In this document: positions 30,501 to 45,911 of the stretch, piece after piece
How positions within the stretch are numbered: the stretch's first letter is position 1
Layout of the letters: each line of letters opens with the position of its first letter
Assembly: GCA_048887225.1 (NCBI GenBank)
Contig: JBHLJY010000003.1
Location: 64,001-128,000 of the forward strand
Length of the DNA: 64,000 bases
Reading direction: 5' to 3'
DNA from: Candidatus Hodarchaeota archaeon
Lineage (GTDB): Archaea > Asgardarchaeota > Lokiarchaeia > Sigyniarchaeales > SOKP01
Notes under the pieces: model-generated
Seen by the model: only the letters and a program-made list of their open reading frames with translations
The model's database searches: none
What the model was told of the DNA's origin: nothing
Translations under genes and position numbers: made by a program

Positions 30501-30634
30501 ATCGTTTTAAGTTTTAATTCTGCCATTTAAAATTTATCATCTTTCAATCTCTTTTTAGAAAAATCTATAAGGAATCTAATATTTTTAATTTTACCTAATT
30601 ATCAATAATAATGTTCAACTTTTATCAATTTATT

Positions 30635-31744
30635 ATGAGTTTTAAATTGGAAGACGTTAAAGGTTTAGGCAAAAAAGCGGGAAATCTTAAGGATGCCGGA
30701 ATAGATTCAGTTGAAAATTTAGCAAATGCTAAAGAAGATGATTTAATAAAGATTAAAGGTATTGGTAAAGCATCTGCCCAAAAGTTTATCAATAATGCAA
30801 AAAAATTATTGAAAAGTAAAACTAGCGAAGATATGTATGAAGAAAAGGTAGTTTCCGAAGAAATTAATGAGGAAGAAAAAAAAGTTCAAGAAGAACATAA
30901 AAGATTAGAGGAAAAGAAAAGGAATTTAGAAGGAAATACGGTTGAGAAAAATGATTTCATTCTTGTAAAGGTAACAGGGAGAACACAAAAGGGAAAAATC
31001 TTTCAAGTTTCTTCTGTAGACGATGCAAAGAAAGCTGGTATCTATGACGAGAAAAAAGAACATCTTTATACACCTGAATTTGTAATTGTAGGAACACCTG
31101 GATTTTTAAATGAGGGTCTTATGGAAACCATTGAGAATATGAATTATTTTGAAAAAAAATCGGTGCGAATTCCGCCAACAAAAGCTTTTGGTAAACGGGA
31201 TCCCACAAAAATTGAAAGAATTGGTATTGCTAAATTTAGGAGAATGAATGATGGGAAGAAACCAGAAATCGGACAAGATTTTACAAGGAAGGATGGTCAG
31301 AGAGGTACGGTAACTAATATTTTACAAGGTAGGGTTATCATAGATTATAATCATCCTTTAGCTGGGCAATCACTTGATTACAATATTGAAGTAATTGATA
31401 AAATCGAAGATTTTAACAAAAAGATTGAACATTTTATGATATCAAAAGGAATTCCTAAACAAAATGTTTCAGACTTTAATATAAATTACAATAAGGATGA
31501 TCAATCAATTGAATTTACAATCCCGAAACAGTTCTTGTTCCAAAATTTGGCATTATTAAAATTTAGTCTAGCAATAGATTTACAAACTCATATGACAGAT
31601 GAAATCAATGATGTAAAGTTTATCGAAATTTACGAAAAAATGCCAATACCACCAACGCCGTCAGAATCAGTAATGGAAAAAATTGAAGAATATGATAAAG
31701 AACATGAAGAACAAAAAAAAGATCAGACAGATAATAAAAAATAA
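30635..31744 (+). CDS. FKBP-type peptidyl-prolyl isomerase (archaeal long type) with N-terminal helix-hairpin-helix domain
   Basis: LEDVKGLG..LIKIKGIGKASA (HhH2); IPPTKAFGKRD, DYNHPLAG; ATG at 30635 preferred over 30611. Confidence 0.85.
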   Translation: MSFKLEDVKGLGKKAGNLKDAGIDSVENLANAKEDDLIKIKGIGKASAQKFINNAKKLLKSKTSEDMYEEKVVSEEINEEEKKVQEEHKRLEEKKRNLEGNTVEKNDFILVKVTGRTQKGKIFQVSSVDDAKKAGIYDEKKEHLYTPEFVIVGTPGFLNEGLMETIENMNYFEKKSVRIPPTKAFGKRDPTKIERIGIAKFRRMNDGKKPEIGQDFTRKDGQRGTVTNILQGRVIIDYNHPLAGQSLDYNIEVIDKIEDFNKKIEHFMISKGIPKQNVSDFNINYNKDDQSIEFTIPKQFLFQNLALLKFSLAIDLQTHMTDEINDVKFIEIYEKMPIPPTPSESVMEKIEEYDKEHEEQKKDQTDNKK

Positions 31745-31750
31745 TTATAT

Positions 31751-32755
31751 TTAATCTAATTCACACTTAAGTATTAATTCGTGCTTTTTAATTTCCTTCT
31801 CTTTTTTAAATTCTAATTTTATTTTATAAAATTCTTCTCGTTTTTGTTCAAGTTCAGTTGAGATTTTTGCTGATTTACCTTTTTTTTTTAAAAGTTTCTT
31901 TTTTGCTTTCTTGTACGCTTTTTTAGCCTTCTTATATTGTTTGTTCTTCATCTTATAAACTTTGTATTTCTCATTGATTTCCTGTCTATAGCTTTTAGAT
32001 ATCTCTTTAAGTCCAATACAGTCTAATTGTTGCTTAAATTTTTTGAATGACTCGAAATTAACTACAATCATACCTAATTTTCTGGCAGGTACCAAGTTTT
32101 GAATCTTATCATCGATATATATAACCTGTTTAGCTTTAGCATCTAATTTTTTCAAAACATATTTATATTTATCTATCTTAGGCTTGATAAGACCAATCTC
32201 ATTCGAGAGAAACACGTAATCAAATGAATCATAAAATCCTCTTAATTCATTCGATTTAGCATATACATCATAAACGTTAGACATTAAGCTCACAGTATAT
32301 CCAGCACTATGAAAAGTTTCAACAATATTCTTCATATCAGAGGATAATTTTGTTAATTTAGTATGTAATTCGAACCATAATTCTAGATAATAGTCCAAGT
32401 TAACTTTTTTGGCTGGTAAGGCTCCATTATGTTTTTGATAAGGATAATAATATCTATCACTTATTTTTTCTAGAAATTCTCGTGAAGTTAATCGTCCAGA
32501 GCTTAATTTTCGTTTAAGTTTTTTAATGTAAGGATTATCTATTCTAGGTATTTTAATCTTTAAATCGCTTTCAATACTATCTAGTAGATTCTTTAAAACG
32601 AATGATCTCTCAGACATTACACCACCAAAATCAAATATTATATGCCTAATCTTATATAACTTAACTTTTTGGCGTCCAAACATTTTTGATGAAGAATTCT
32701 TATAAGATTTATTGCTATTTTGAAGACTCATTCTCTTTATATAATAATTACTCAA
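31751..32755 (-). CDS. HAD-IA phosphatase (YihX-like) with Lys-rich C-terminal extension
   Basis: IFDFGGV, LMSN, SNEIGLIKP, YIDD; about 80-aa poly-Lys helix. Confidence 0.85.
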   Translation of the reverse strand: MSNYYIKRMSLQNSNKSYKNSSSKMFGRQKVKLYKIRHIIFDFGGVMSERSFVLKNLLDSIESDLKIKIPRIDNPYIKKLKRKLSSGRLTSREFLEKISDRYYYPYQKHNGALPAKKVNLDYYLELWFELHTKLTKLSSDMKNIVETFHSAGYTVSLMSNVYDVYAKSNELRGFYDSFDYVFLSNEIGLIKPKIDKYKYVLKKLDAKAKQVIYIDDKIQNLVPARKLGMIVVNFESFKKFKQQLDCIGLKEISKSYRQEINEKYKVYKMKNKQYKKAKKAYKKAKKKLLKKKGKSAKISTELEQKREEFYKIKLEFKKEKEIKKHELILKCELD

Positions 32756-33726
32756 TATATTTTAATTCTTGAAACTAATTCTTTCTTTTTCAATTTTGCT
32801 TTTTTATATTCAGCTTTTTTAATCATATAATCTTCATATTTTATTTCAAGATTAGTTTTCTTTTTTGAGGAGTCCTTTTTATTTTTTAAATAGTAGTTTT
32901 TTGCCTTCTTATATGCTCTTTTAGCCTTACGAAATTCTCTCTTTATTTCTTTATATAGTTTGTATTTGTTTTTAATTTCACGTCGAGATAACGAGCTTAT
33001 ATCTTTTATGCCAAGTTCTTTTAATTGCTCTTTAAATTTATCTATAGACTCAAATTTTAGGACATTCATACCCAATTGTTTAGCAGGAATGAGATTTTTG
33101 AGTTTATTGTCAATAAAAATGCAATATTTGGGTTTTGTTTTCAATTTTTTTATTACATATTTATATTTTTCTAAATCTGGTTTCCTAAATCCAATTTCGT
33201 TTGATAAAAAAATAAAATCAAATAAATTATAAAATCCTTTAAGCTTATTTGATTTTACATGAACATCAAAAGTATTTGACATTAAGCTAACCGTATATCC
33301 TGCTTTATGTAGTTTTAGGACAATTTCTTCCATGTCCATAGATAAATGGGAAAATTTAGAATATAATTGAAACCATAATTCTAAATAATAGTCCAAGTTA
33401 ACTTTTTTGGCTGGTAAGGGTCCATCATTTTTCTTATTTGGATAATAATATCTCTTAAGAACTTTCTCTATAAAATCACGTGATGTGATTATACCCGCGC
33501 CTAATTGCCTAAACAATTTTCTATAATAAGAATCTTCTGATCGAGGGATTATTATATTTAAATCGTTTTCTATTATATCAAATAGATTCTTAATACTATG
33601 AGTCGGTTTTATGAGTACACCTCCAAAATCAAAAATGAAGTGTTCAATTTCATATAATTTAACTTTTTGAAACCCGAATACTTTTCGAATAATATCTTCT
33701 TCTTGGTCTTGAAAGCTCATTATCAT
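32752..33726 (-). CDS. HAD-IA phosphatase (YihX-like) with Lys-rich C-terminal extension; tandem paralogue
   Basis: IFDFGGV, LMSN, SNEIGFRKP, FIDN; near-identical DNA block (LPAKKVNLDYYLELWF) shared with the neighbour. Confidence 0.85.
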   Translation of the reverse strand: MIMSFQDQEEDIIRKVFGFQKVKLYEIEHFIFDFGGVLIKPTHSIKNLFDIIENDLNIIIPRSEDSYYRKLFRQLGAGIITSRDFIEKVLKRYYYPNKKNDGPLPAKKVNLDYYLELWFQLYSKFSHLSMDMEEIVLKLHKAGYTVSLMSNTFDVHVKSNKLKGFYNLFDFIFLSNEIGFRKPDLEKYKYVIKKLKTKPKYCIFIDNKLKNLIPAKQLGMNVLKFESIDKFKEQLKELGIKDISSLSRREIKNKYKLYKEIKREFRKAKRAYKKAKNYYLKNKKDSSKKKTNLEIKYEDYMIKKAEYKKAKLKKKELVSRIKIY

Positions 33727-33759
33727 CTTAAACTAAATCAATTATTTAATAAATATATT

Positions 33760-34551
33760 TTAAATTTCCTTTTTTAATTTTTTAAACTCTCTCAAAATCA
33801 GATTCCCAATTTTAGAAACAGGATCTCCTCCACATTTCCAATTTGTAAACTCTGGAAATGATCCCGGATCAACAACAAACAATTTACCAGTATTTTTTTC
33901 TTTAACAATGTCTAAATGTCCGAATAATAGATTATAACTATTTTTCCATTTTAAAATAATTTCTAGGATATCATTAGGCGTATCTCTTTTTATCATATCA
34001 GAATGTTCATTTTTTAAAGGAAGTTTTTCTAAAGTACATATTTCATTATCAATAAAATAAACAGTATAATGTATGCCTTCAATAAATTTTTCTAAATATA
34101 AAATTTCATCTGAATTTGCTTCAAAATCTCTGAAGGTGTTTATAATTTTAACGCCTCTGCTTCCAGAACTCGTAATTGGCTTTAAAAGTAATGGAAAGTC
34201 GTTTTCTGTAAGATTTTTTATCAGAGCCTTTAATGCTCCGTAATAAATATGTGGATATAATAAACCGGCATTTTTTATTAGTAAATAAGCTTCTAATCTG
34301 TTTCTGTGTTTATAACTAATTTCTGGATTTGGTATAACTGGAATATTATTTGCCTCAATATAATATCCCGCATAGATAAAAGGTATTTGATGTTTAGATT
34401 TTAATATGTATAAATCATTCTCAAGTAATGACTCATCTATGCATAGATTTTCCTTTGTATAGATTTTAACACGATATCCTTTACTTTCATAAAATATTTT
34501 TAATTTCCCGGTAAAATATCCTGTTCTTTTAGATAATATTCCTATTTTCAT
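33760..34551 (-). CDS. ATP-grasp protein, ITPK1-like (degenerate C-terminal motif)
   Basis: FPLLLKP..SSGSRGV, EKFIEG, FGHLDIV...FVVDPGSFPEF. Confidence 0.7.
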   Translation of the reverse strand: MKIGILSKRTGYFTGKLKIFYESKGYRVKIYTKENLCIDESLLENDLYILKSKHQIPFIYAGYYIEANNIPVIPNPEISYKHRNRLEAYLLIKNAGLLYPHIYYGALKALIKNLTENDFPLLLKPITSSGSRGVKIINTFRDFEANSDEILYLEKFIEGIHYTVYFIDNEICTLEKLPLKNEHSDMIKRDTPNDILEIILKWKNSYNLLFGHLDIVKEKNTGKLFVVDPGSFPEFTNWKCGGDPVSKIGNLILREFKKLKKEI

Positions 34552-34564
34552 GTTATAATTCTAT

Positions 34565-35392
34565 TTATTGTTTTTTAGCTTGTTCTATTAAAAATTCCGC
34601 AAATATTTTTGGTCCATTTTCAATATAATTAAAATTTGGCATGGAATTTATGTCTGTTAGATAATAAGTCCCATCTTTTGATTTTAAAAAGTCTAAAGAT
34701 GAAGCCTTAAGGTCTAGAATTTTTATTGCTTTTAATGCGATTTCTTTTAATTCAGAAATCTCTTGGATTTTTCTTCTGGTTTCCATTTTATCTGGGTTTA
34801 CTAAAAATGGAATTTGTTTATAGAAAAACAATTTATCTCCAAAACCATATATTTTATATTCCCACTTACTTTTAACGAATTTCTGGTAATAATAATATTG
34901 ATAATCCTCCTCTCCTCCATTAACTTCTTTAATTGCTCTCTCATCACTGATCTTTAGATGTCCATTTTCTTTTAAAATATTTGGCTTAAAAGTGTATGTT
35001 TTTTCGTCAACTATATTCTTTATAATATAATCTTTAAATGGGGCTTGACAAGTTGAGGGAAATAATGAAAAATCAGGTACACAGATACCAACTTTTCTTA
35101 ATAAAATACTATTTAAAAATCTATGTGATGCTAGCCAAATTGCTTTTGAAGGATTAATTACGGGGATTGAAGTTTCGTTTTCAATCATTCGAGCAAGAGA
35201 AACCAAAAATTTTCCTTTACCCTTAACAAAAAATAGATCTTCGTCAAATTCTAAATTTTTATTTTTAAGTAAGTAAGAATCTTCTACATATAGTTTTACA
35301 TTAGATTTAGATTTTAAATATTTTAATAAATCTGATATTTTATATTTCAAATGAAATTTATCAATAATGATTCCAATTTTTGGTTTTTTCAT
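34565..35392 (-). CDS. ATP-grasp protein, ITPK1-like inositol phosphate kinase
   Basis: PVINP, QKFV..EYKIYGFG, SLDFL...YLTDINSMPNF. Confidence 0.72.
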   Translation of the reverse strand: MKKPKIGIIIDKFHLKYKISDLLKYLKSKSNVKLYVEDSYLLKNKNLEFDEDLFFVKGKGKFLVSLARMIENETSIPVINPSKAIWLASHRFLNSILLRKVGICVPDFSLFPSTCQAPFKDYIIKNIVDEKTYTFKPNILKENGHLKISDERAIKEVNGGEEDYQYYYYQKFVKSKWEYKIYGFGDKLFFYKQIPFLVNPDKMETRRKIQEISELKEIALKAIKILDLKASSLDFLKSKDGTYYLTDINSMPNFNYIENGPKIFAEFLIEQAKKQ

Positions 35393-35597
35393 AAATATCT
35401 AAATTATAATCTGATATTAAATACATGAGATTTATTCGATTTAAATGAATATATAATGATTTATATATTATAATTTAGATTAAAAAATTATTTAAGTAAA
35501 GCTGTTTGGCGATTCCCTATATAGATCCCATATATAAATAATAAATAGATTTATAAAGAATGTTTTTTATAAGAAACCAAACTGATGAGATTTTTTT

Positions 35598-36515
35598 ATG
35601 TCTAAAAAAATCATTGTTGGTTCGATCTGTAATCGAGATCTCGAAGTTTTTAACGAGATCAAGAGATTTTCTAAGATTCATTATAGAATAAAGTTTGTTA
35701 ATCTCATAAAAAACGATTCTTCTTTTTCTATCAAATATTTCAAAAAAAAATTGAAAAAATACAATATAGATTTCTTAATTGTTAAATTATATTCAGAGGA
35801 ATCAAATCATAAAGTATATGACGCAATTAAATCATATGCATCTAATATCCCCCGATTGAATAGTTTAAAATCTGTTCAAACATGCGAGAGCCGAAAGGAA
35901 ACATTTAAATTAGTAGAGGAAAAATGCAAAAAACTAAAGATTCCTAAATCTTTTTATTCAATAAACGCTGCGTTTGAAGCAGTATCGAATGGAACGCCTT
36001 TAATTATAAAATTAGATACACATAATATAAGAAATTTATCTAAATATGATCGAATTCTTGGTGTCGCGAAATCTAATGATGATTTCGTTAAGTTAATTAG
36101 AAAATATGATGTAGAGAATAACACTTTATTTTTCCAAGAATATTTAGGTAAACATGATGATATTTATAAAGTGTATGTAATTGATCGTTATGTACAAACA
36201 ATCACATCTCAAAATCTTTTATTACAACATAAGTTTTCCCCTTTAGAATTAGTACACCTTAGAGCACCGATAGAAAAAGAATTTAAAAGACAAATTTTAA
36301 GATTAGGGCGAAAATTTGGTATGACAATCTTCGGTGTTGATTATGTCTTAAAAGATGACATTCCCTATATAGTAGATATTAATGATTTTCCTAGTTTTAG
36401 ATATATCCCCGAGGCTATAAGCATGATATCTGATTATATATACAAGTTCTGTGTTGCGAGACAAACTCTTACTAAGATTCCAATGAGATTAAAAGTAAAA
36501 ACTTATACTATGTAA
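35598..36515 (+). CDS. ATP-grasp protein, ITPK1-like inositol phosphate kinase
   Basis: PLIIK, FQEYL, IYKVYVI, IFGVDYV...IVDINDFPSF. Confidence 0.8.
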   Translation: MSKKIIVGSICNRDLEVFNEIKRFSKIHYRIKFVNLIKNDSSFSIKYFKKKLKKYNIDFLIVKLYSEESNHKVYDAIKSYASNIPRLNSLKSVQTCESRKETFKLVEEKCKKLKIPKSFYSINAAFEAVSNGTPLIIKLDTHNIRNLSKYDRILGVAKSNDDFVKLIRKYDVENNTLFFQEYLGKHDDIYKVYVIDRYVQTITSQNLLLQHKFSPLELVHLRAPIEKEFKRQILRLGRKFGMTIFGVDYVLKDDIPYIVDINDFPSFRYIPEAISMISDYIYKFCVARQTLTKIPMRLKVKTYTM

Positions 36516-36542
36516 GAATAGCAATACAATTAAATTCTTATA

Positions 36543-37634
36543 TTATCGCGATCTTTTTCCTTGGATAAATCTTACAAGGCGTCGTTTCGCCCTAAAATCT
36601 TGGAGCTGTTTTGGAGGGTGTTTCATAAAAAAAGAACTTGCTGAATGTAATACGCCTCCAATCTGTCGATCTTTAGCTATTTTTGATATTCGAATGCAAT
36701 CTGCAATAATACCTGCTGAATTATTCCCGTCTTCAACAAACATGGTGATATCTACTCTGACAGGAGCGCCTCCAAAAATACGTCCTTCTAATCTCATATA
36801 TGCTTCTTTTTGATTTTTTAAGAATGGAATATAATCAACAGCAGAAATTTGACATTCAACAGTATCTTTATTTTGTAACTTAGCAACGACTGCCTCAGTT
36901 TTGGATTGGCGTTTTCCTTCTTCATAAATTAGCTCCCCGTTCGGTTTAGGTGTTAGAAGGTTCAAGAAATCGCTACATCCGCCCCAATCAAGCTGTATTG
37001 TTCTATCCAATATCGCTCCACGCATTGGAAAAAGATTTGCTAAAGCTCTATGAATAATTGTCGCACCAACCTGAGATTTCACATCGTCTCCAATTAAAGA
37101 AAGTCTTAATTCTTCTGCTTTTTGGACTATTTCTGGATCTTTCGCTACATTTGATGGTATTCCACACACAATACAGGCTCCTGCATCAAGAGCAGCCATT
37201 GCATAAAATTTCACAGCTCTATGGGCCCCAGTTGGTAGAAGAATTACAGCGACATCAACACTTCGTTCTCTTATTTCTCTAGCAATATCAGCTTCTTTTT
37301 GGTTATTATCAACAGGCACAATATTCTTTATGTTGCTATCCAAACCATCCATTATAGGACCTTTAATGACTGGAGCATTTAGAAAATCTGGACGATATAG
37401 TTCCATATTACAATTTGGTTCAGCAAATATGGCTTCACTAAGATCTTTTCCAACTTTGTTTGCGTTGACTTCTATGCCCAATACAAAACTTATATCATTG
37501 ATGCTATATTGTATTATTTCTGGTAGAATTCCTATAATTTTATCTGGATTTCTTTTATAGTTTTCGATTCCTTGGACAAGAGCAGATGCAACATCTCCAA
37601 TCCCTATCAGACAAACATTAATTTTATTTGTCAT
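36543..37634 (-). CDS. ino1: myo-inositol-1-phosphate synthase
   Basis: GIGDVASALVQG, LPTG, GDDVKSQVGAT, DFLNL, SKT, NSAG, FMKHPP. Confidence 0.93.
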   Translation of the reverse strand: MTNKINVCLIGIGDVASALVQGIENYKRNPDKIIGILPEIIQYSINDISFVLGIEVNANKVGKDLSEAIFAEPNCNMELYRPDFLNAPVIKGPIMDGLDSNIKNIVPVDNNQKEADIAREIRERSVDVAVILLPTGAHRAVKFYAMAALDAGACIVCGIPSNVAKDPEIVQKAEELRLSLIGDDVKSQVGATIIHRALANLFPMRGAILDRTIQLDWGGCSDFLNLLTPKPNGELIYEEGKRQSKTEAVVAKLQNKDTVECQISAVDYIPFLKNQKEAYMRLEGRIFGGAPVRVDITMFVEDGNNSAGIIADCIRISKIAKDRQIGGVLHSASSFFMKHPPKQLQDFRAKRRLVRFIQGKRSR

Positions 37635-37842
37635 GATAATGGGTATAATTAAATTATTATATTTAAATCATTACGAATAAGAATAAGATCTTTAAATCTT
37701 TCACAAAGTATCTTCAATTCTTTTTCCTTTAAATATGGTAAAAAATCATAATTCAATATGTATTAAATCGTAATCTATAAGTATAAAAAATTATAATTCA
37801 AGATAAGCAAACTATCAAACAATAAAAGACTGTTTTACTAAA

Positions 37843-39120
37843 ATGGAAAAAATAGAAAAATTACCTCGAAAAGTAAAGAGAACTGCCATCCTAGTAGGAA
37901 TCTTATTCGCTGGAGCGACTATATTCGGTTATTTCGAAGCCACTTTCTTCAATACTTACTTAGATCATCAATTAAATTTACCATATTATTACATCTCCAT
38001 AATGGTATCGTTATCAGCCACAATGGGATTAATAATGATGGTCGTTTGGGGAATAAAAAGTGACAATACGAGATCGAAATTTGGTAGACGAAGTCCATAC
38101 CTTCTATTGGGTTTTATAGCAGGATTTGCAATGATAGCTTTCGCTTTTGCTGAAGATTTTCTAATGTGTATAATTTTAGATGTGATTATTATTGGAATTG
38201 CGTCTAATGCATATTATGTAGCTCAAAGATCGTTTATTCCAGATTTAGTCGAATCTGAACATCGAGGGCGAGCTAATGGAATTACTAATGCTATAGGAAA
38301 TCTCGGATTATTAATTGCGATTGGTTTAACTTTAGTCGCAAATGAATTATTTACGGTTAAAAGAGGCACTGGAAACATTTTAACTCGCGAAGGTCATTTA
38401 TTTTTGTTCATTATGGGGGGTGGGGCAATTATACTATGTAGTATGATTGGTTTTATATTCATAAAAGAATTACCTCAATCGGAGTTGCCTCCAAAAAAAG
38501 CATTTATGCTTGAACTAAAAGAAATCTTTGATATTGAAGAATTCAGAAAACAAAACCAATTTTTTAGAATTGTTTTAGCAGAAACAATTTTTAGAGCACA
38601 TATCTATGTAGTATTACCATTTTTGTTTAGCTATTTATTCTCTTTAGCATTGACTACATTTGAGTTTATTTTAATCATTGCGGTGTCTACTCCGGTTATT
38701 GTTGTAGTAATGGTGATTTTAGGTAAAATGGCAGATAAATTTGGCCGAAAAACTTCATTAGCACCTGGAATCATTATTGCCAGTATAGGATTATTCATGA
38801 TGCCATTTGCTATATTCTTTCCTCAATATAAGATAATAATCTTACTTCTTGCATTTCCCTTGGTTTTAATCGGGCTTTTAGGGCTTGAAGTACCTCTTAA
38901 CGCTTGGTCCCAAGATCTTCTTCCAGAAGATAGAAGAGGTAAATTCTTGGGAATATTAAATGTAGTTAGAACAATATCACAAATTATAGGGGTAACCGTA
39001 GGAGGTATTGTTGCCACGATTTACGGTCTTGAATGGGTTTTTATTTTCGCTCCAATATTTCTAATTGGATCTATCTTCTTTTTCAGAAGAGTAAAAGAAA
39101 CACTAACATTTGAAGAATAA
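37843..39120 (+). CDS. MFS transporter (GPH/sugar-glycoside-like)
   Basis: SDNTRSKFGRRSPY, PDLV..HRGRAN, ADKFGRK, DLLPEDRRG. Confidence 0.9.
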   Translation: MEKIEKLPRKVKRTAILVGILFAGATIFGYFEATFFNTYLDHQLNLPYYYISIMVSLSATMGLIMMVVWGIKSDNTRSKFGRRSPYLLLGFIAGFAMIAFAFAEDFLMCIILDVIIIGIASNAYYVAQRSFIPDLVESEHRGRANGITNAIGNLGLLIAIGLTLVANELFTVKRGTGNILTREGHLFLFIMGGGAIILCSMIGFIFIKELPQSELPPKKAFMLELKEIFDIEEFRKQNQFFRIVLAETIFRAHIYVVLPFLFSYLFSLALTTFEFILIIAVSTPVIVVVMVILGKMADKFGRKTSLAPGIIIASIGLFMMPFAIFFPQYKIIILLLAFPLVLIGLLGLEVPLNAWSQDLLPEDRRGKFLGILNVVRTISQIIGVTVGGIVATIYGLEWVFIFAPIFLIGSIFFFRRVKETLTFEE

Positions 39121-39168
39121 CAAATATGATATTTTATTATTTATGCCTTAATTATGATTTTTTCATCT

Positions 39169-40878
39169 CTAAGATTTTTTCCATAATTTACGAAGCACAT
39201 GTGCTGCCATTTTTGGTCGGCGATCTCTTGTAAATACTCCTTTATAATTCAAACCTCCCGCCCTCAATATACCTTGTGCAGTTTTGAAATCACACAAGTT
39301 CCAGACATGTTGTCCTACAACATAATCTTTAGTATTTAAAAGCTCAATATATCTCCTTATGAATTCCATTTGATACTCTTCGCTAAACATTTCTGGAGGT
39401 TGAGCATGACATCCTGGAATGGTATCGGTTCCAAATTCAGATAAGATTATTGGTTTAGAGTATTTTTTATATAATTTGTCCAATTCTTCAGATAGTAATT
39501 CGATACCTTCTTCAATTCTTCCTGGTTGAGTATACCATCCATAATAACGATTTAAACAGATAATATCTAAGAATTTGAAAGTGTTTTCTCCTGTACCCAT
39601 CATATTAGCTATAGTAACTGGTCGAGTTGCATCTTTTTTCTTCGCAATTTCATATAATTTACGGAAAAAATCTCTTGCTCTAATACTCCTATGGGGTTCA
39701 TTAGCTAAACTCCACATTATTACGCTTGGATGATTTTTATCTCTTTCGATTAATTTTTGAATATATTGCTGGCATAATTCGAAATGACGATCAATAATTT
39801 TGAGATCAAATGTGAGCCCTACTGCTGGTGTTTCATCAATAACTAAAAAGCCTAGACGGTCAGCTAAGTCCATCATCTGTTCTGAATAAGGATAATGAGA
39901 TGTGCGAAAGGAATTGGCACCTATCCAACTTAATAAGGCGAAATCTTTAATCAAAATCACTGGAAAATAACCCTTTCCAATTATCGGAAAATCTTCATGA
40001 CGTCCAAATCCAGTCAATTTTATTGGTTTTCCATTTAGGAGTAATTGATTACCTTTAACTTCAATTGTTCGAATTCCTATTGATAAAGAGTACGAATCAA
40101 AAATAATGCCATCATGAGAGAGCTCTACAATCATATCGTATAAGTTTGGGGATTCTGGAGACCATAGTGCTGCATTATCCACTGATAAAGTGGTTTTTGC
40201 TAATTCTCCAGTAAGCGGAACTTCAGAAATAATATTTGCACTATGTCCGCTCAATTTAATCAATACATTTTCTCCATAGTTGCCAGTTCTCTGAATTTTA
40301 ATATTAATATATCCATTAGTACCTTCAATGGTAGTTATAACTGTCAGATCTTTAATCCCCTCTTTAGGCATTGTATAAATTAACACTGGGCGATGTATTC
40401 CACAGAAAGGAAAAAAATCAAAATTTGTATTAGGATAATTTAAAGGTCTACCACTAGGAGGAACATGTTCTTTGGCTAAATTCCCATCCACTCGCACAAT
40501 TAATCGATTTTTTTCTGTTTTTATTAAAGATGTAATATCATATTCGAAAGGCAAGTGGCCACCTTCGTGCTGACCAAGATTTTCACCATTTAACCAAACA
40601 TTTGCCACGTAGTTGACAGAGCCAAATCTCAAAAATATACGATGATTTTCCCAACTCCACGGCAGATTAAAAAAAGTCTGGTACCATGCGGGACCTAAAA
40701 AATCACGATTACCAGCGAATTGTTCGTTCCAACTAGCTGGTACTGCTATTGGGTGAGCATCATTAAGACCATTTTGCCAATTATTTATCAGACCTTCATC
40801 ATTAAAATCAAAACGAAAATCCCACAAACCAGATAAATCAATGCATTGGCGATATTTATTTATTTGAGGATAAAGCAT
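39169..40878 (-). CDS. uidA: Beta-glucuronidase (GH2)
   Basis: MLYP, VPASWN, FGRHED, NSFRTSHYPY, WSLANE, NRYYGWY, SEFG, N.KGVFTRDRRPK. Confidence 0.92.
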   Translation of the reverse strand: MLYPQINKYRQCIDLSGLWDFRFDFNDEGLINNWQNGLNDAHPIAVPASWNEQFAGNRDFLGPAWYQTFFNLPWSWENHRIFLRFGSVNYVANVWLNGENLGQHEGGHLPFEYDITSLIKTEKNRLIVRVDGNLAKEHVPPSGRPLNYPNTNFDFFPFCGIHRPVLIYTMPKEGIKDLTVITTIEGTNGYINIKIQRTGNYGENVLIKLSGHSANIISEVPLTGELAKTTLSVDNAALWSPESPNLYDMIVELSHDGIIFDSYSLSIGIRTIEVKGNQLLLNGKPIKLTGFGRHEDFPIIGKGYFPVILIKDFALLSWIGANSFRTSHYPYSEQMMDLADRLGFLVIDETPAVGLTFDLKIIDRHFELCQQYIQKLIERDKNHPSVIMWSLANEPHRSIRARDFFRKLYEIAKKKDATRPVTIANMMGTGENTFKFLDIICLNRYYGWYTQPGRIEEGIELLSEELDKLYKKYSKPIILSEFGTDTIPGCHAQPPEMFSEEYQMEFIRRYIELLNTKDYVVGQHVWNLCDFKTAQGILRAGGLNYKGVFTRDRRPKMAAHVLRKLWKKS

Positions 40879-40957
40879 ATTATTAAATATTAATAAAAGT
40901 TTTTATGCTTTTTTAGAATTTGAATAATTAAATAAAACGGCTTTAATCAGAGTTTAT

Positions 40958-42106
40958 ATGAATAGTAGAGAGAGAGTAAAAAAGGCGTTCCATTTCGATA
41001 AACCCGATAGAGTACCTATGTCTCAAATGAACTTAAAAACAGATTTTTTTCCAGTCCATCAATATCATCCTAAATCTTGGCAACCACAAAATTATCCTCC
41101 TCACGTAAGAGGGGGTGTTGAAAAAATAACTAAAATAACTTATAGAAAATTCGTATATAATTGGAAAAATACAATGAGAAAAGAAGCAGGATATTCTAAG
41201 AAGTGGTGGAAAAATCCTCATGAGAGTATTGATGAATGGAATACTATTTGGAAATCTTCAGGAACAGAAAGTGCTGATGTAACAAAAGGTCATCCCTTTA
41301 AAGGTTTTCTTCAAGATGATTGGGATAAAATTAATGATTACAAAATCCCTGACGCATCAAATCCGGAGCGATATAGGATGATAAAAACAAAAATATGGAA
41401 ATTATTAGGTAAGAATAGATATACGGTTGGCGAAATGGGAGCTAATGGTCTATTCAATCAATGTAGTCAAATTAGGGGTTTTACTAATCTTCTTATTGAC
41501 TTTGCTAGACATTCACAAGAAGTAGATCAATTAATCAATAAAATACTTCCTTTTTACCTGATTCAAATTGAAAAATTTAAAGGATATTATCCAACACTAG
41601 ATTCAATTATTATCGCAGATGATTTAGGAACTCAAAAATCGCCGTTCATCAGCCCAAGAATTTTTCAAAAATTTTTTAAAGAACCTTATAAAGAAATCAT
41701 AGATTTAACTCATGAATTAGGAATGGATTTTATTCTACATTCTTGCGGCCAAATTTTCGAATTAATGCCAGATATAATTGATATTAATGTTGACGTGTTT
41801 GAATTTGACAGCCCCCATATGACTGGAGTCGAAAATTTTAAAAAATTTGCAAAGGAACGAAAGGTGGCATTCTGGCTTTCATCAAATATTCAGAGTACAT
41901 ATCCTCTTGGAACACCTGAAGAAGTAGAAGAAGAAATAAAACATTACATTAAAGAAGTGGGTAATAATGAAGGAGGATTAGCTATTTATGAATATATGTC
42001 AAATAAGGTTTTAAGGACACCAAAAGGAAATATTATATCACAAAGAGAAGCTACTCTTAAATGGGGTAATTACAATGAAAATGGTTTTATTGATTGGTTA
42101 GCTTAG
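40958..42106 (+). CDS. Uroporphyrinogen decarboxylase / MtaA-like methyltransferase family protein
   Basis: MNSRERV...PDRVP, DEW, RGF, ADDLGTQ, LHSCG. Confidence 0.8.
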   Translation: MNSRERVKKAFHFDKPDRVPMSQMNLKTDFFPVHQYHPKSWQPQNYPPHVRGGVEKITKITYRKFVYNWKNTMRKEAGYSKKWWKNPHESIDEWNTIWKSSGTESADVTKGHPFKGFLQDDWDKINDYKIPDASNPERYRMIKTKIWKLLGKNRYTVGEMGANGLFNQCSQIRGFTNLLIDFARHSQEVDQLINKILPFYLIQIEKFKGYYPTLDSIIIADDLGTQKSPFISPRIFQKFFKEPYKEIIDLTHELGMDFILHSCGQIFELMPDIIDINVDVFEFDSPHMTGVENFKKFAKERKVAFWLSSNIQSTYPLGTPEEVEEEIKHYIKEVGNNEGGLAIYEYMSNKVLRTPKGNIISQREATLKWGNYNENGFIDWLA

Positions 42107-42159
42107 AATCGTTATTCTATCAAAACCTTAAGAAGTTAAATAATATTTTATTCCTTAAT

Positions 42160-43050
42160 ATGGCAAAAAAAATAGTTCTTTCCGCCAAAAAAGAACATGA
42201 TGTTATTATAAATGTTATAAAGAAGCTAAAAGAAATCCAAAATATTGATTTAATTTTACATGATCCAACTGAAGATTTTCTTAACTTAGAAGATATGCAT
42301 AATCAATTTGGAGATGCTGATTTTATAATAGCAAAAGTCGCAAGCGATTGTTCTATTGATTTACTCCATTTTGCTAAACTTTACAAAATTCCTACATTGC
42401 ATGATATTGACACAGTTCTAATGTGTAAAAATAGAGTTGCTCTTGACCATGTTTTAAGAAGAATTTTTAATAAATATTCGAAAGAGTTAGATAAATTTTT
42501 ATTACCAAAATCTTGGACGCATTCCTTATTAAATATAAATAGATTTAAGGAATGGGCTTCTTCACGATTGCCAATAGTTATTAAAAGTCATTATCAACAC
42601 GATAAATACAATCGATTTAATTTCTTGGTTCGGGAAATAGAAGAAGTTAATAAATTTTGTAAATTATATTCAAATTTTTTATACTATGATGTATATATTC
42701 AAGAATTTGTGGAATGTGATGGAATAGAGCTAAAAGTATATGTGGTTGGAGATAAAGTATTTGGAATTAAAAGAGAAAATCCAATTTACATTTTTTTAAG
42801 AGATAAACTCATTTCTATTGATGTTGAGACTATAGAAAGAGTCAAATTTAAAGTCCCAGATGATATGAAAAATTTAGCTAAAGTTCTTGCAAAAGAACTA
42901 AATTTAAAACTATTTGGGTTTGATTTAGTTAAACCTCTTAATCAAGAGGGATATTTTCTAATTGATTTAAACGATTTTCCTGGTTTTAGGGGTATTAACA
43001 ATATTGATAAAGTAATAGCTGACTTTATTAAAAAATATTTAAATCGATGA
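42160..43050 (+). CDS. ATP-grasp protein, ITPK1-like inositol phosphate kinase (best-conserved copy)
   Basis: LPIVIK, QEFV, LKVYVVGD, LKLFGFDLV...FLIDLNDFPGF; ATG at 42160 preferred over TTG at 42094, which overlaps the upstream gene. Confidence 0.85.
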   Translation: MAKKIVLSAKKEHDVIINVIKKLKEIQNIDLILHDPTEDFLNLEDMHNQFGDADFIIAKVASDCSIDLLHFAKLYKIPTLHDIDTVLMCKNRVALDHVLRRIFNKYSKELDKFLLPKSWTHSLLNINRFKEWASSRLPIVIKSHYQHDKYNRFNFLVREIEEVNKFCKLYSNFLYYDVYIQEFVECDGIELKVYVVGDKVFGIKRENPIYIFLRDKLISIDVETIERVKFKVPDDMKNLAKVLAKELNLKLFGFDLVKPLNQEGYFLIDLNDFPGFRGINNIDKVIADFIKKYLNR

Positions 43051-44706: not shown

Positions 44707-45186
44707 TTAACAAGAAAATTTTTCTAAACCTTTCATTAAACATTCTGTAATTTCGTCCCGAGCAATTCTAAATCCTTCTATTCCTTTCATAGAGGGATCT
44801 GCAATATCACCGTATTCACCTGCGAATTCTTTTATTGTAAAGACCTCTTTATTATCAACTTCTTCATATTTCAGTATTTCTTCTTTATGCTCCTTAGTAA
44901 GGGTTAATATTAAATCTGCCTTTTTAATTAATCCTTTATGTCTTTTTAAATCGAAAGACTTAGATTTATCAGATAAATTAATTCCAATTTCTTCCATTGC
45001 TAATTTAGCATCCATTGAAATCAACATTCCGTCCCTTGCATTTGAAGCAATACCTCCTGAATTAACCTTAACCTCTAAATTATTTTTTAAGAAATAGTCT
45101 TTTAATAAACCCTCAGCCATACAACTTCTCGCAGTATTAACACTACAGACAACTAAAATAGATTTGTATGGAAAATCATTAACCAT
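44707..45186 (-). CDS. Low-molecular-weight protein (Tyr/Arg) phosphatase
   Basis: VCSVNTARSCMAE (CX5R P-loop), ADLIL, DIADP. Confidence 0.9.
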   Translation of the reverse strand: MVNDFPYKSILVVCSVNTARSCMAEGLLKDYFLKNNLEVKVNSGGIASNARDGMLISMDAKLAMEEIGINLSDKSKSFDLKRHKGLIKKADLILTLTKEHKEEILKYEEVDNKEVFTIKEFAGEYGDIADPSMKGIEGFRIARDEITECLMKGLEKFSC

Positions 45187-45233
45187 GATTTAGAAAAAGA
45201 TAACTATCATTAATTTTTTATCTATGAAAATAA

Positions 45234-45911
45234 TTAGTTTTTGAAACTGTCTTTATTCGCAAATTTAATACTTTTATTAACCATATTTTCTAAGGAGTTT
45301 GAAATGTTTCCAGGAGGGAGATCAATTCCTTTTGTCAAATCAACTAAGAAATATACTTCAAATCCTAAATCAACACCATCTATGGCAGTAAAATAACAAC
45401 AATAATCTAATGCTAATCCACACACAAAAATCTTGTCAATTCCTAAAGATCTTAATTTATTAGCTAAGCCTGTTTCTGATTTCTTATCATTTTCGATGAA
45501 TCCTGAATAACTGTCAATTTCAGGATTCATTCCTTTTTGGATAATTGCATCCGCCAAATTTTTTTTTAAATCCTTATGAAAGTCTGCACCTATAGAATCT
45601 TGTACACAATGGTCTGGCCATAATATGGGGCCAATTCCCTCTGATTGAAATTCATCGCCCGCATTTTTATTTAGATGTTGACTTGCAAAAGACTTATGAT
45701 TTTTCGGGTGCCAATCTTGAGTTAAAACCACTTTTCCATTTTTTTTTTTGAAAAAATCTGCAACTTTATTTATCCCATCTACTATTAGATCGCCTTCTTC
45801 TACAGGCAAAGCACCATTAGGCATAAAATCATTTTGCATATCAACTATGATTAGAGCATCTTTAATGTTAATCTCAATTTCTTTATCAATCTTTAAATCT
45901 TCAATATTCAT
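45234..45911 (-). CDS. pncA: Nicotinamidase/pyrazinamidase
   Basis: DMQNDF, QDWHP, WPDHC, KG...DSYSGF, GLALDYC. Confidence 0.93.
   Translation of the reverse strand: MNIEDLKIDKEIEINIKDALIIVDMQNDFMPNGALPVEEGDLIVDGINKVADFFKKKNGKVVLTQDWHPKNHKSFASQHLNKNAGDEFQSEGIGPILWPDHCVQDSIGADFHKDLKKNLADAIIQKGMNPEIDSYSGFIENDKKSETGLANKLRSLGIDKIFVCGLALDYCCYFTAIDGVDLGFEVYFLVDLTKGIDLPPGNISNSLENMVNKSIKFANKDSFKN

Follow-up and report, generated by a model that had tools for sequence, protein, structure and literature searches.

An archaeal MIPS locus with ITPK1-like kinases and a paired intact and degenerate ATP-grasp protein in one Lokiarchaeia lineage

The archaeal inositol-phosphate kinases closest to those considered here were described by Desfougeres et al. 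in 2019, who found four ITPK1 homologues, arranged as two pairs, flanking two inositol-3-phosphate synthase (IPS) genes in Lokiarchaeum (PMC6900528). A route from glucose-6-phosphate to inositol 3-phosphate, Ins(3)P, and on to inositol hexakisphosphate (IP6) was proposed, and one of the kinases, LcIKC, partly restored IP6 in plc1-delta yeast (PMC6900528). A locus of this kind lies in a 64,000-nucleotide stretch of contig JBHLJY010000003.1 of Candidatus Hodarchaeota archaeon (assembly GCA_048887225.1, positions 64,001 to 128,000; hereafter the window), whose host genome is 3.27 Mb in size and 98% complete. Ten open reading frames (ORFs) were confirmed at the expected coordinates across window positions 31751-43050, coding for two HAD phosphatases (HAD1, HAD2), four ATP-grasp proteins (K1-K4), a myo-inositol-1-phosphate synthase (MIPS) and three cargo proteins. 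As in the LcIKA-LcIKD/IPS loci, ITPK1-like ATP-grasp genes stand beside the synthase; LcIKA-D may correspond to K1-K4 or to two copies of K3/K4. The main text of that paper mentions no HAD, degenerate subunit, heterodimer or MIPS variant (PMC6900528).

An earlier note on this DNA had read MIPS and the kinases as an inositol-phosphate route and had mentioned that ITPK1 homologues near MIPS were reported in Lokiarchaeota; both the central inference and this statement are covered by the 2019 publication (PMC6900528). What is new is the K2-K1 pair, a usual but dispensable HAD, and the MIPS variant, on none of which was a paper found in the literature searched. Without these additions the finding would be a repeat of the published result.

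The locus and its proposed pathway

Gene content, motifs, synteny and distribution together make it rather probable that, in one Lokiarchaeia lineage, the locus encodes a soluble module for inositol-phosphate synthesis that does not depend on lipids and resembles in kind the LcIK/IPS loci published in 2019. It would comprise two ITPK1-like kinases, a probable heterodimer of K2 with K1 and a phosphatase that is optional. Its genes in the window are as follows.

HAD1, 31751-32755, minus strand: C1-cap HAD phosphatase of the YihX / soluble-epoxide-hydrolase N-domain type, with a lysine-rich tail
HAD2, 32752-33726, minus strand: paralogue of HAD1 with a basic C-terminal helical hairpin
K1, 33760-34551, minus strand: degenerate ATP-grasp protein, predicted partner of K2
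K2, 34565-35392, minus strand: D-x-N ATP-grasp protein, predicted catalytic subunit of a K2-K1 heterodimer
K3, 35598-36515, plus strand: ITPK1-like kinase
MIPS/Ino1, 36543-37634, minus strand: member of a locus-specific MIPS clade
MFS transporter, 37843-39120, plus strand: variable cargo
GH2 beta-glucuronidase-like gene, 39169-40878, minus strand: variable cargo
URO-D/MtaA-like gene, 40958-42106, plus strand: variable cargo
K4, 42094-43050, plus strand: clearest ITPK1 homologue

K2 and K1 are separated by 13 bp and K1 and HAD2 by 33 bp, the called frames of HAD2 and HAD1 share 4 bp, and K3 is divergent from K2 and convergent with MIPS. The placing of MIPS among four ATP-grasp genes by the earlier note was borne out for every ORF, as were the motifs it had described: EYKIY and DINSMP in K2, KVY and DINDFP in K3, KVY and DLNDFP in K4, and the degenerate HYTVY and DPGSFP in K1. 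The HAD and MIPS assignments were confirmed by Pfam and NCBIfam. The four ATP-grasp proteins are long-diverged paralogues with 22-26% pairwise identity; the host genome holds no close extra copies of them and two further MIPS genes on its contig C2.

In the proposed pathway, the locus-specific MIPS would cyclise glucose-6-phosphate to Ins(3)P, which K3 and K4, judged by homology, would phosphorylate with ATP to higher inositol phosphates, an activity observed only for the relative LcIKC, in yeast (PMC6900528). K2 and K1 would form one heterodimer, in which K2 offers the intact catalytic site and K1 serves as a nucleotide- or ligand-binding non-canonical subunit, and which would act on the MIPS product or a derivative of it. 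The tailed HAD, an optional member, might act as an Mg-dependent phosphatase in the turnover or trimming of a phosphorylated pathway intermediate, be it an inositol or a sugar; its second copy in the window would be a duplicate specific to the lineage. A role of the product as a cofactor or as a store of phosphate or solute is more likely than one as a second messenger.

Two ITPK1-like kinases and an ATP-grasp pair

Judged from their sequences, only K3 and K4 are clearly ITPK1-like. Against the PF05770 (Ins134_P3_kin) cut-off of 23 bits, K4 scores above with 53.4 and K3 falls just below with 20.8, while K1 and K2 have no PF05770 match, so that the profile check proposed in the earlier note upheld K4 and not the set of four. 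ITPK1 structures rank first in PDB profile searches for both K4 (E 5e-15) and K3 (1e-6). Eukaryotic ITPK1 (PF05770; PDB 2QB5, 1Z2N, 7TN6, 8OXE) shares with K3 and K4 the ATP-grasp fold, the K-V-Y lysine (K199), FG-x-D and D-x-N-x-FP, and the R212 equivalent is present in K4 (human ITPK1 numbering). The ATP-binding arginine and lysine, the K199-equivalent lysine, FG-x-D and D-x-N are retained in both proteins; K3 has R99, K138, R152, K191, D248, D260 and N262, and the 318-residue K4 ORF has R114, K164, K214, R227, D277, D291 and N293. The true start of K4 is probably the ATG at 42160, and its orthologues have about 297 residues. D-x-N was found in 63 orthologues of K2, 72 of K3 and 45 of K4, and the K199-equivalent lysine is invariant in all three families (K180 in K2, K191 in K3, K192 in K4 by 297-residue numbering). 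The earlier note had taken D-x-N as a hallmark of ITPK1, but it is common to many ATP-grasp proteins of other prokaryotic families, so the motif alone is not diagnostic.

K1 and K2 match generic ATP-grasp/RimK models, below cut-off or without specificity (Pfam, NCBIfam), and the ESM Atlas returned only generic ATP-grasp clusters, as it returned only generic HAD clusters for the phosphatases. K2 carries R91, K125, E178-Y-K180, R206, D234, D247 and N249, and its profile aligns with K4 over the full length (probability 99.2). K1 retains R85, K124, D214 and D228, has Gly230 in place of the D-x-N asparagine and Thr163 at the K199 position, and bears a LysX-like SGSxG loop. These changes are shared by its orthologues, which read D-x-G in 65 of 65 and have Thr, Leu, Asn or Ile at the K199-equivalent position, and K51-S-K53, H161, K176, E182-H183 and H212 are invariant. 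The degenerate motifs are kept in Promethearchaeota and Thermoplasmatota copies as well, and their persistence speaks for a functional rather than a decaying K1. In the reading of the earlier note, all four proteins were ITPK1-like kinases; this could not be kept for K1, with neither the K199 nor the N297 equivalent, and is uncertain for K2, which is distant from ITPK1.

A complex of K2 with K1 was predicted with a score of 0.90 versus 0.00 for the best control, a mark met by 58 of 80 solved complexes and by 2 of 110 mismatched pairs. The prediction runs share at least 98% of contacts, and the partner predicted local distance difference test (pLDDT) value is at least 89. This prediction supports binding between the two proteins, and K2 and K1 appear to be constant partners in a probable heterodimer, the former subunit intact and the latter degenerate. 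The predicted interface involves equivalent regions of both chains, so the score may be due to a likeness to solved LysX/RimK-type oligomers. We know of no ITPK1 heterodimer. The LysX, ArgX and RimK ligases are oligomeric by habit.

A variant MIPS and a tailed HAD phosphatase

The locus MIPS scores above the PF01658 cut-off (75.8 versus 27 bits) and matches M. tuberculosis 1GR0 with an E value of 5e-79. It retains DDVKSQ, K241/K245, K276, D302 and K338, as well as equivalents of M. tuberculosis K198, D235, K248, K252, K284, D310 and K346. The copies from such loci form a clade of their own (74-98% identity), which among 61 genomes searched was found only in genera with K1-K3 and is set apart from other MIPS paralogues. 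They read QLDWGG(C/S)SDF and L-K-N-Q-K in place of the invariant N-x-x-G-N-x-D and L-x-D-x-K, which in M. tuberculosis numbering corresponds to N229D, N233S/C and D282N; the other paralogue is canonical. The first asparagine of this block, Asn255 of AfMIPS, was reported as important for substrate interaction and as strengthening glucose-6-phosphate binding (PMC5614600). From sequence, the reciprocal exchange of Asn and Asp could be neutral or could alter substrate or product. Because the locus MIPS stands in a clade apart and its active-site changes are conserved, some doubt attaches to what it makes.

A second MIPS locus of the host genome (L049:8684-19864; about 263700-274900 of contig C2 in G000) holds a canonical and a degenerate MIPS in tandem, the latter reading DDLQDQ without the lysine of DDxKSQ. 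This pair adjoins a nucleotidyltransferase and a TagF-like CDP-glycerol glycerophosphotransferase of 814 aa, with a second similar ORF, which suggests an inositol-containing surface polymer. The tandem of canonical and degenerate MIPS, which other genomes have as well, may represent a further pair of enzyme and pseudo-enzyme. At seven loci of family f2 and genus g8 (L050-L056, e.g. L050:7959-11376), a different, tail-less HAD of about 245 aa is divergent to a 390-448 aa protein without a Pfam match, followed by a canonical-type MIPS.

HAD1 carries D42-FGGV, S159-N, K191-P and D215-D-K and ends in a helical tail, rich in lysine, of about 78 aa; its true start is probably an ATG eight codons in. 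HAD2, 58% identical to HAD1, has D33-FGGV, S150-N, K182-P and D206-N-K and a C-terminal helical hairpin at 248-317, with 32 Lys plus Arg in 77 aa; its net charge of +22 over 70 aa is reached by only 7 of 2,407 genome ORFs. Motifs I-IV and the C1 cap are intact, and DFGGV is present in 48 of 48 sequences. Among solved structures, YihX, BT2542 and the phosphatase domain of soluble epoxide hydrolase (sEH) are nearest. With YihX glucose-1-phosphatase and the sEH N-terminal phosphatase (HAD-IA, TIGR02247-like), the locus HADs share D-x-G in motif I, S-N in II, K-P in III, D-D in IV and the helical C1 cap, but they add the basic helical hairpin of about 75 aa and score 67-75 bits versus the TIGR02247 cut-off of 125. 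Possible ligands of the hairpin are a polyanion, a membrane or nucleic acid. An SPX-like tail was considered because of the YKKAKK repeat; the fold matches were taken up by HAD core residues 23-245 and barely covered the tail. A 552-aa open frame in G035 proved not to be a fusion of K1 with HAD.

A HAD domain is also coupled to an ITPK kinase in plant ITPK4, where it is capless, lacks the catalytic motifs and showed no activity (PDB 7PUP, PMC7614388). A link to that domain was not upheld: 7PUP was not among the 60 profile matches listed or the top 50 fold matches for the locus HAD, an absence that is not an exclusion. Since no sequence link was found, the plant pairing of HAD and kinase is probably independent.

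Distribution, alternatives and implications

Related loci are labelled mostly Promethearchaeota. The synteny sample comprised 74 loci collected with the K3 profile, and the counts of synteny and co-occurrence are descriptive, as related genomes are not independent. K2 adjoins K1 in 67 of 67 loci with a median gap of 14 bp, K3 adjoins MIPS in 67 of 74, and K4 lies inside the fetched stretch in 46. Among 64 informative loci, K1 is followed by one HAD in 46, by two in 2 and by none in 16; where present (48 loci), the HAD is co-oriented at a median gap of 26 bp. The usual order is FKBP, HAD, K1, K2, K3, MIPS, a variable insert, K4 and BacA. This linkage is far beyond chance, and the whole surrounding region, with proteasome beta and FKBP, is syntenic too. 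In a survey of 135 family genomes, K1 was found in 103, the tailed HAD in 84 and both in 82. The 21 K1-bearing genomes without the tailed HAD include several that are 98-100% complete, and this HAD stands apart from the kinases in five genomes (G015, G018, G025, G027, G032). HAD1 and HAD2 are two clades confined to genus g1. From these counts and clades, a single HAD is frequent but dispensable and the HAD pair is a local duplication. The synteny of HAD with the kinases expected by the earlier note thus stood for one HAD and not for the tandem pair, whose candidacy as a conserved design was dropped, and the notion of two dedicated, matched erasers is not supported, given a duplication within one genus and a HAD that is missing or placed elsewhere in many K1-bearing genomes.

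Matches to PF05770 were found in 49 of 54 genomes of the host family, in 1 of 5 of a sister family and in none of the other families sampled. The K4 profile matched 122 of 134 family genomes, 5 of the 19 remaining genomes of the order and, beyond it, two (G068 and G161); these two are E-x-N proteins and were rejected as ITPK1-like genes. In this phylum-wide search, which scored only 5 candidates per genome so that distant copies may be missed, the kinases were not found in the other Asgard classes covered, and three single-contig Lokiarchaeia genomes gave no match to the profile. MIPS, K1 and K2/K3 recur intact in one Thermoplasmatota lineage, in whose searched genome the tailed HAD was not found, and K2-K1-MIPS occurs in other Promethearchaeota with K3 and K4 not nearby. 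With few exceptions the kinases belong to a single Lokiarchaeia order, and the locus is lineage-restricted and apparently mobile, which does not speak for a conserved pre-eukaryotic circuit. Eukaryotic ITPK1, for which Asgard sister sequences were reported (bioRxiv 10.64898/2026.05.08.723234), could still be of Asgard origin despite this restriction.

Window positions 37843-42106 are variable cargo of about 4.4 kb, outside the conserved system. Here MIPS and K4 are 4,459 bp apart with the MFS, GH2 and URO-D-like genes between them, and these were rejected as pathway members, the interval being empty in about 15 loci and filled by changing genes elsewhere. Proteins of 811 aa and 936 aa without a Pfam match recur in the interval in many genomes (L038:12775-15210, L039:12682-15492), the latter accompanied by a Zn-dehydrogenase and an MFS transporter. 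Across the family the left border is a gene resembling FKBP-type peptidyl-prolyl isomerases, with an N-terminal helix-hairpin-helix-like extension (window 30611-31744). After K4, and convergent with it, there is usually a BacA undecaprenyl-diphosphatase-like gene, missing at this position in the window genome, then genes resembling a low-molecular-weight phosphatase and a nicotinamidase (L038:16121-16966; window 44707-45911). K4 alone stands at or near FKBP in genera without K1-K3, the locus MIPS and the tailed HAD (L064, L065, L066, L068, L168), and may have occupied this site before the other genes. The tailed HAD of genus g6 adjoins a DUF47/PhoU-like gene and a PiT phosphate transporter (L044:5289-8016, L045:5534-8305), a possible link to phosphate homeostasis, and in three genus g1 genomes a CotH-family kinase gene is inserted directly after the HAD (L034:2182-3462, L037:13344-14630). 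A major vault protein homologue lies near the K2-K1-MIPS locus of a Promethearchaeota genome (L173:15353-16780).

Several findings weigh against the synthesis module as drawn. K3 and K4 have Arg at the position of human H167, an inositol-phosphate contact, although this may be functionally conservative, and the Arg near R212 is missing from the window copy of K3. Aligned by motif, the locus MIPS has Asp at the AfMIPS Asn255 position, and its N-to-D and D-to-N pattern is common to the degenerate member of tandem MIPS pairs. The closest solved relatives of the HAD act on glucose-1-phosphate or lipid phosphates, and relatives of the Thermoplasmatota lineage have K2-K1 next to a GHMP kinase or CNNM gene, with no MIPS in the vicinity. 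Where the GHMP kinase precedes K2-K1 in the same orientation (L162:3035-5530, L177:3631-6126), it could supply a phosphorylated substrate in place of MIPS. Moreover, the best PDB match of the K2 profile is ArgX (5e-5), with Entamoeba ITPK1 at only 0.04, and the confident K1 model (pLDDT 92.9) superposes on LysX/ArgX (PDB 5K2M, 3VPB, 4IWX for the LysX/ArgX/RimK ligases) with Z 25.4 and a root-mean-square deviation (rmsd) of 2.5 over 252 aligned residues, compared with a poorer Z 19.4 and rmsd 3.6 over 253 for human ITPK1 (ITPK1 range Z 17-19). This likeness, extended by compact size and a glycine-rich ATP lid loop, allows another view, in which K2-K1 is an ATP-grasp ligase or other transferase with the MIPS product as its acceptor for an amino acid or another group. 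The variant MIPS may then make a cyclitol phosphate other than myo-inositol-3-phosphate, so that the module yields a modified cyclitol as solute or envelope precursor and the HAD removes the last phosphate as in other solute pathways. The conserved MIPS substitutions and the genomes with K2-K1-MIPS as the minimal unit suit such a ligase, as does a distant K2 relative adjoining a nucleotidyltransferase. We nevertheless regard it as doubtful, since K1 and K2 lack the E-x-N and D-x-R motifs of those ligases, E-x-N being found in none of K1-K4, and no NCBIfam score comes near its cut-off, the best for TIGR00768 being 46.7 versus 143.4. K2 also has the ITPK1-type lysine together with its full-length alignment to K4, the invariant basic residues of both proteins suit a phosphorylated acceptor, and no LysW carrier or lysine/arginine pathway genes were seen in the locus. 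A tree that contained no eukaryotic sequences placed all 22 E-x-N (RimK/LysX-type) sequences on one side of a branch (SH-aLRT 97) with K1-K4 outside, and K1 grouped with K2 (SH-aLRT 94, below the starred level). The grouping with RimK/LysX that the earlier note had named as a counter-test was thereby not recovered, but for K1 it is left unrejected by the approximately unbiased test (p 0.425).

The make/break signalling circuit of the earlier note, with four position-specialised kinases and two matched phosphatases inherited by eukaryotes, would be in keeping with the shared gene order of HAD, the three ATP-grasp genes next to it and MIPS, with the divergence of the four paralogues, with the reported Asgard sisters of eukaryotic ITPK1 and with the HAD-like domain fused to plant ITPK4. 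It is nonetheless very unlikely, as K1 lacks the key kinase residues throughout its orthologues, the HAD pair is rare and the HAD itself often missing, no receptor or regulator is present in the locus, and the ITPK4 domain is capless, showed no activity and is absent from the profile matches listed. The narrow distribution described above, with the module also in Thermoplasmatota, points the same way. As for the HAD, it is quite conceivable, if somewhat less so than not, that it acts generally on sugar phosphates, came to lie between FKBP and K1 by insertion and was retained by inertia, with no role in inositol-phosphate turnover. Its YihX/sEH-type family, its loss in about half of genus g2 (present in 20 of 42 versus 38 of 42 for K1), its separation from the kinases in five genomes and a neighbourhood that is syntenic anyway would all fit, but its co-orientation closely after K1, its near restriction to K1-bearing genomes (82 of 84, though kin are not independent) and its unusually basic tail speak against this.

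A bolder extension of the synthesis module seems improbable. Here an obligate K2-K1 enzyme/pseudo-enzyme heterodimer with a dedicated variant MIPS would constitute a mobile archaeal module, shared by Lokiarchaeia and Thermoplasmatota, that makes inositol or other cyclitol polyphosphates by chemistry undescribed for ITPK1, with K1 sensing a nucleotide or an inositol phosphate and the polybasic HAD erasing the product, the first cytosolic eraser of this sort in a prokaryote. The 2019 yeast tests used single Loki kinases and gave partial rescue only (PMC6900528); if K2 needs K1, tests of single genes would miss K2 activity. The narrow distribution, in one Lokiarchaeia order and a Thermoplasmatota lineage, weakens the view that the eukaryotic host inherited such a locus as its ancestral state, and it points to horizontal movement. 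If true, the inositol chemistry known from archaea would be widened by a variant MIPS and by an inositol-phosphate phosphatase of prokaryotic origin.

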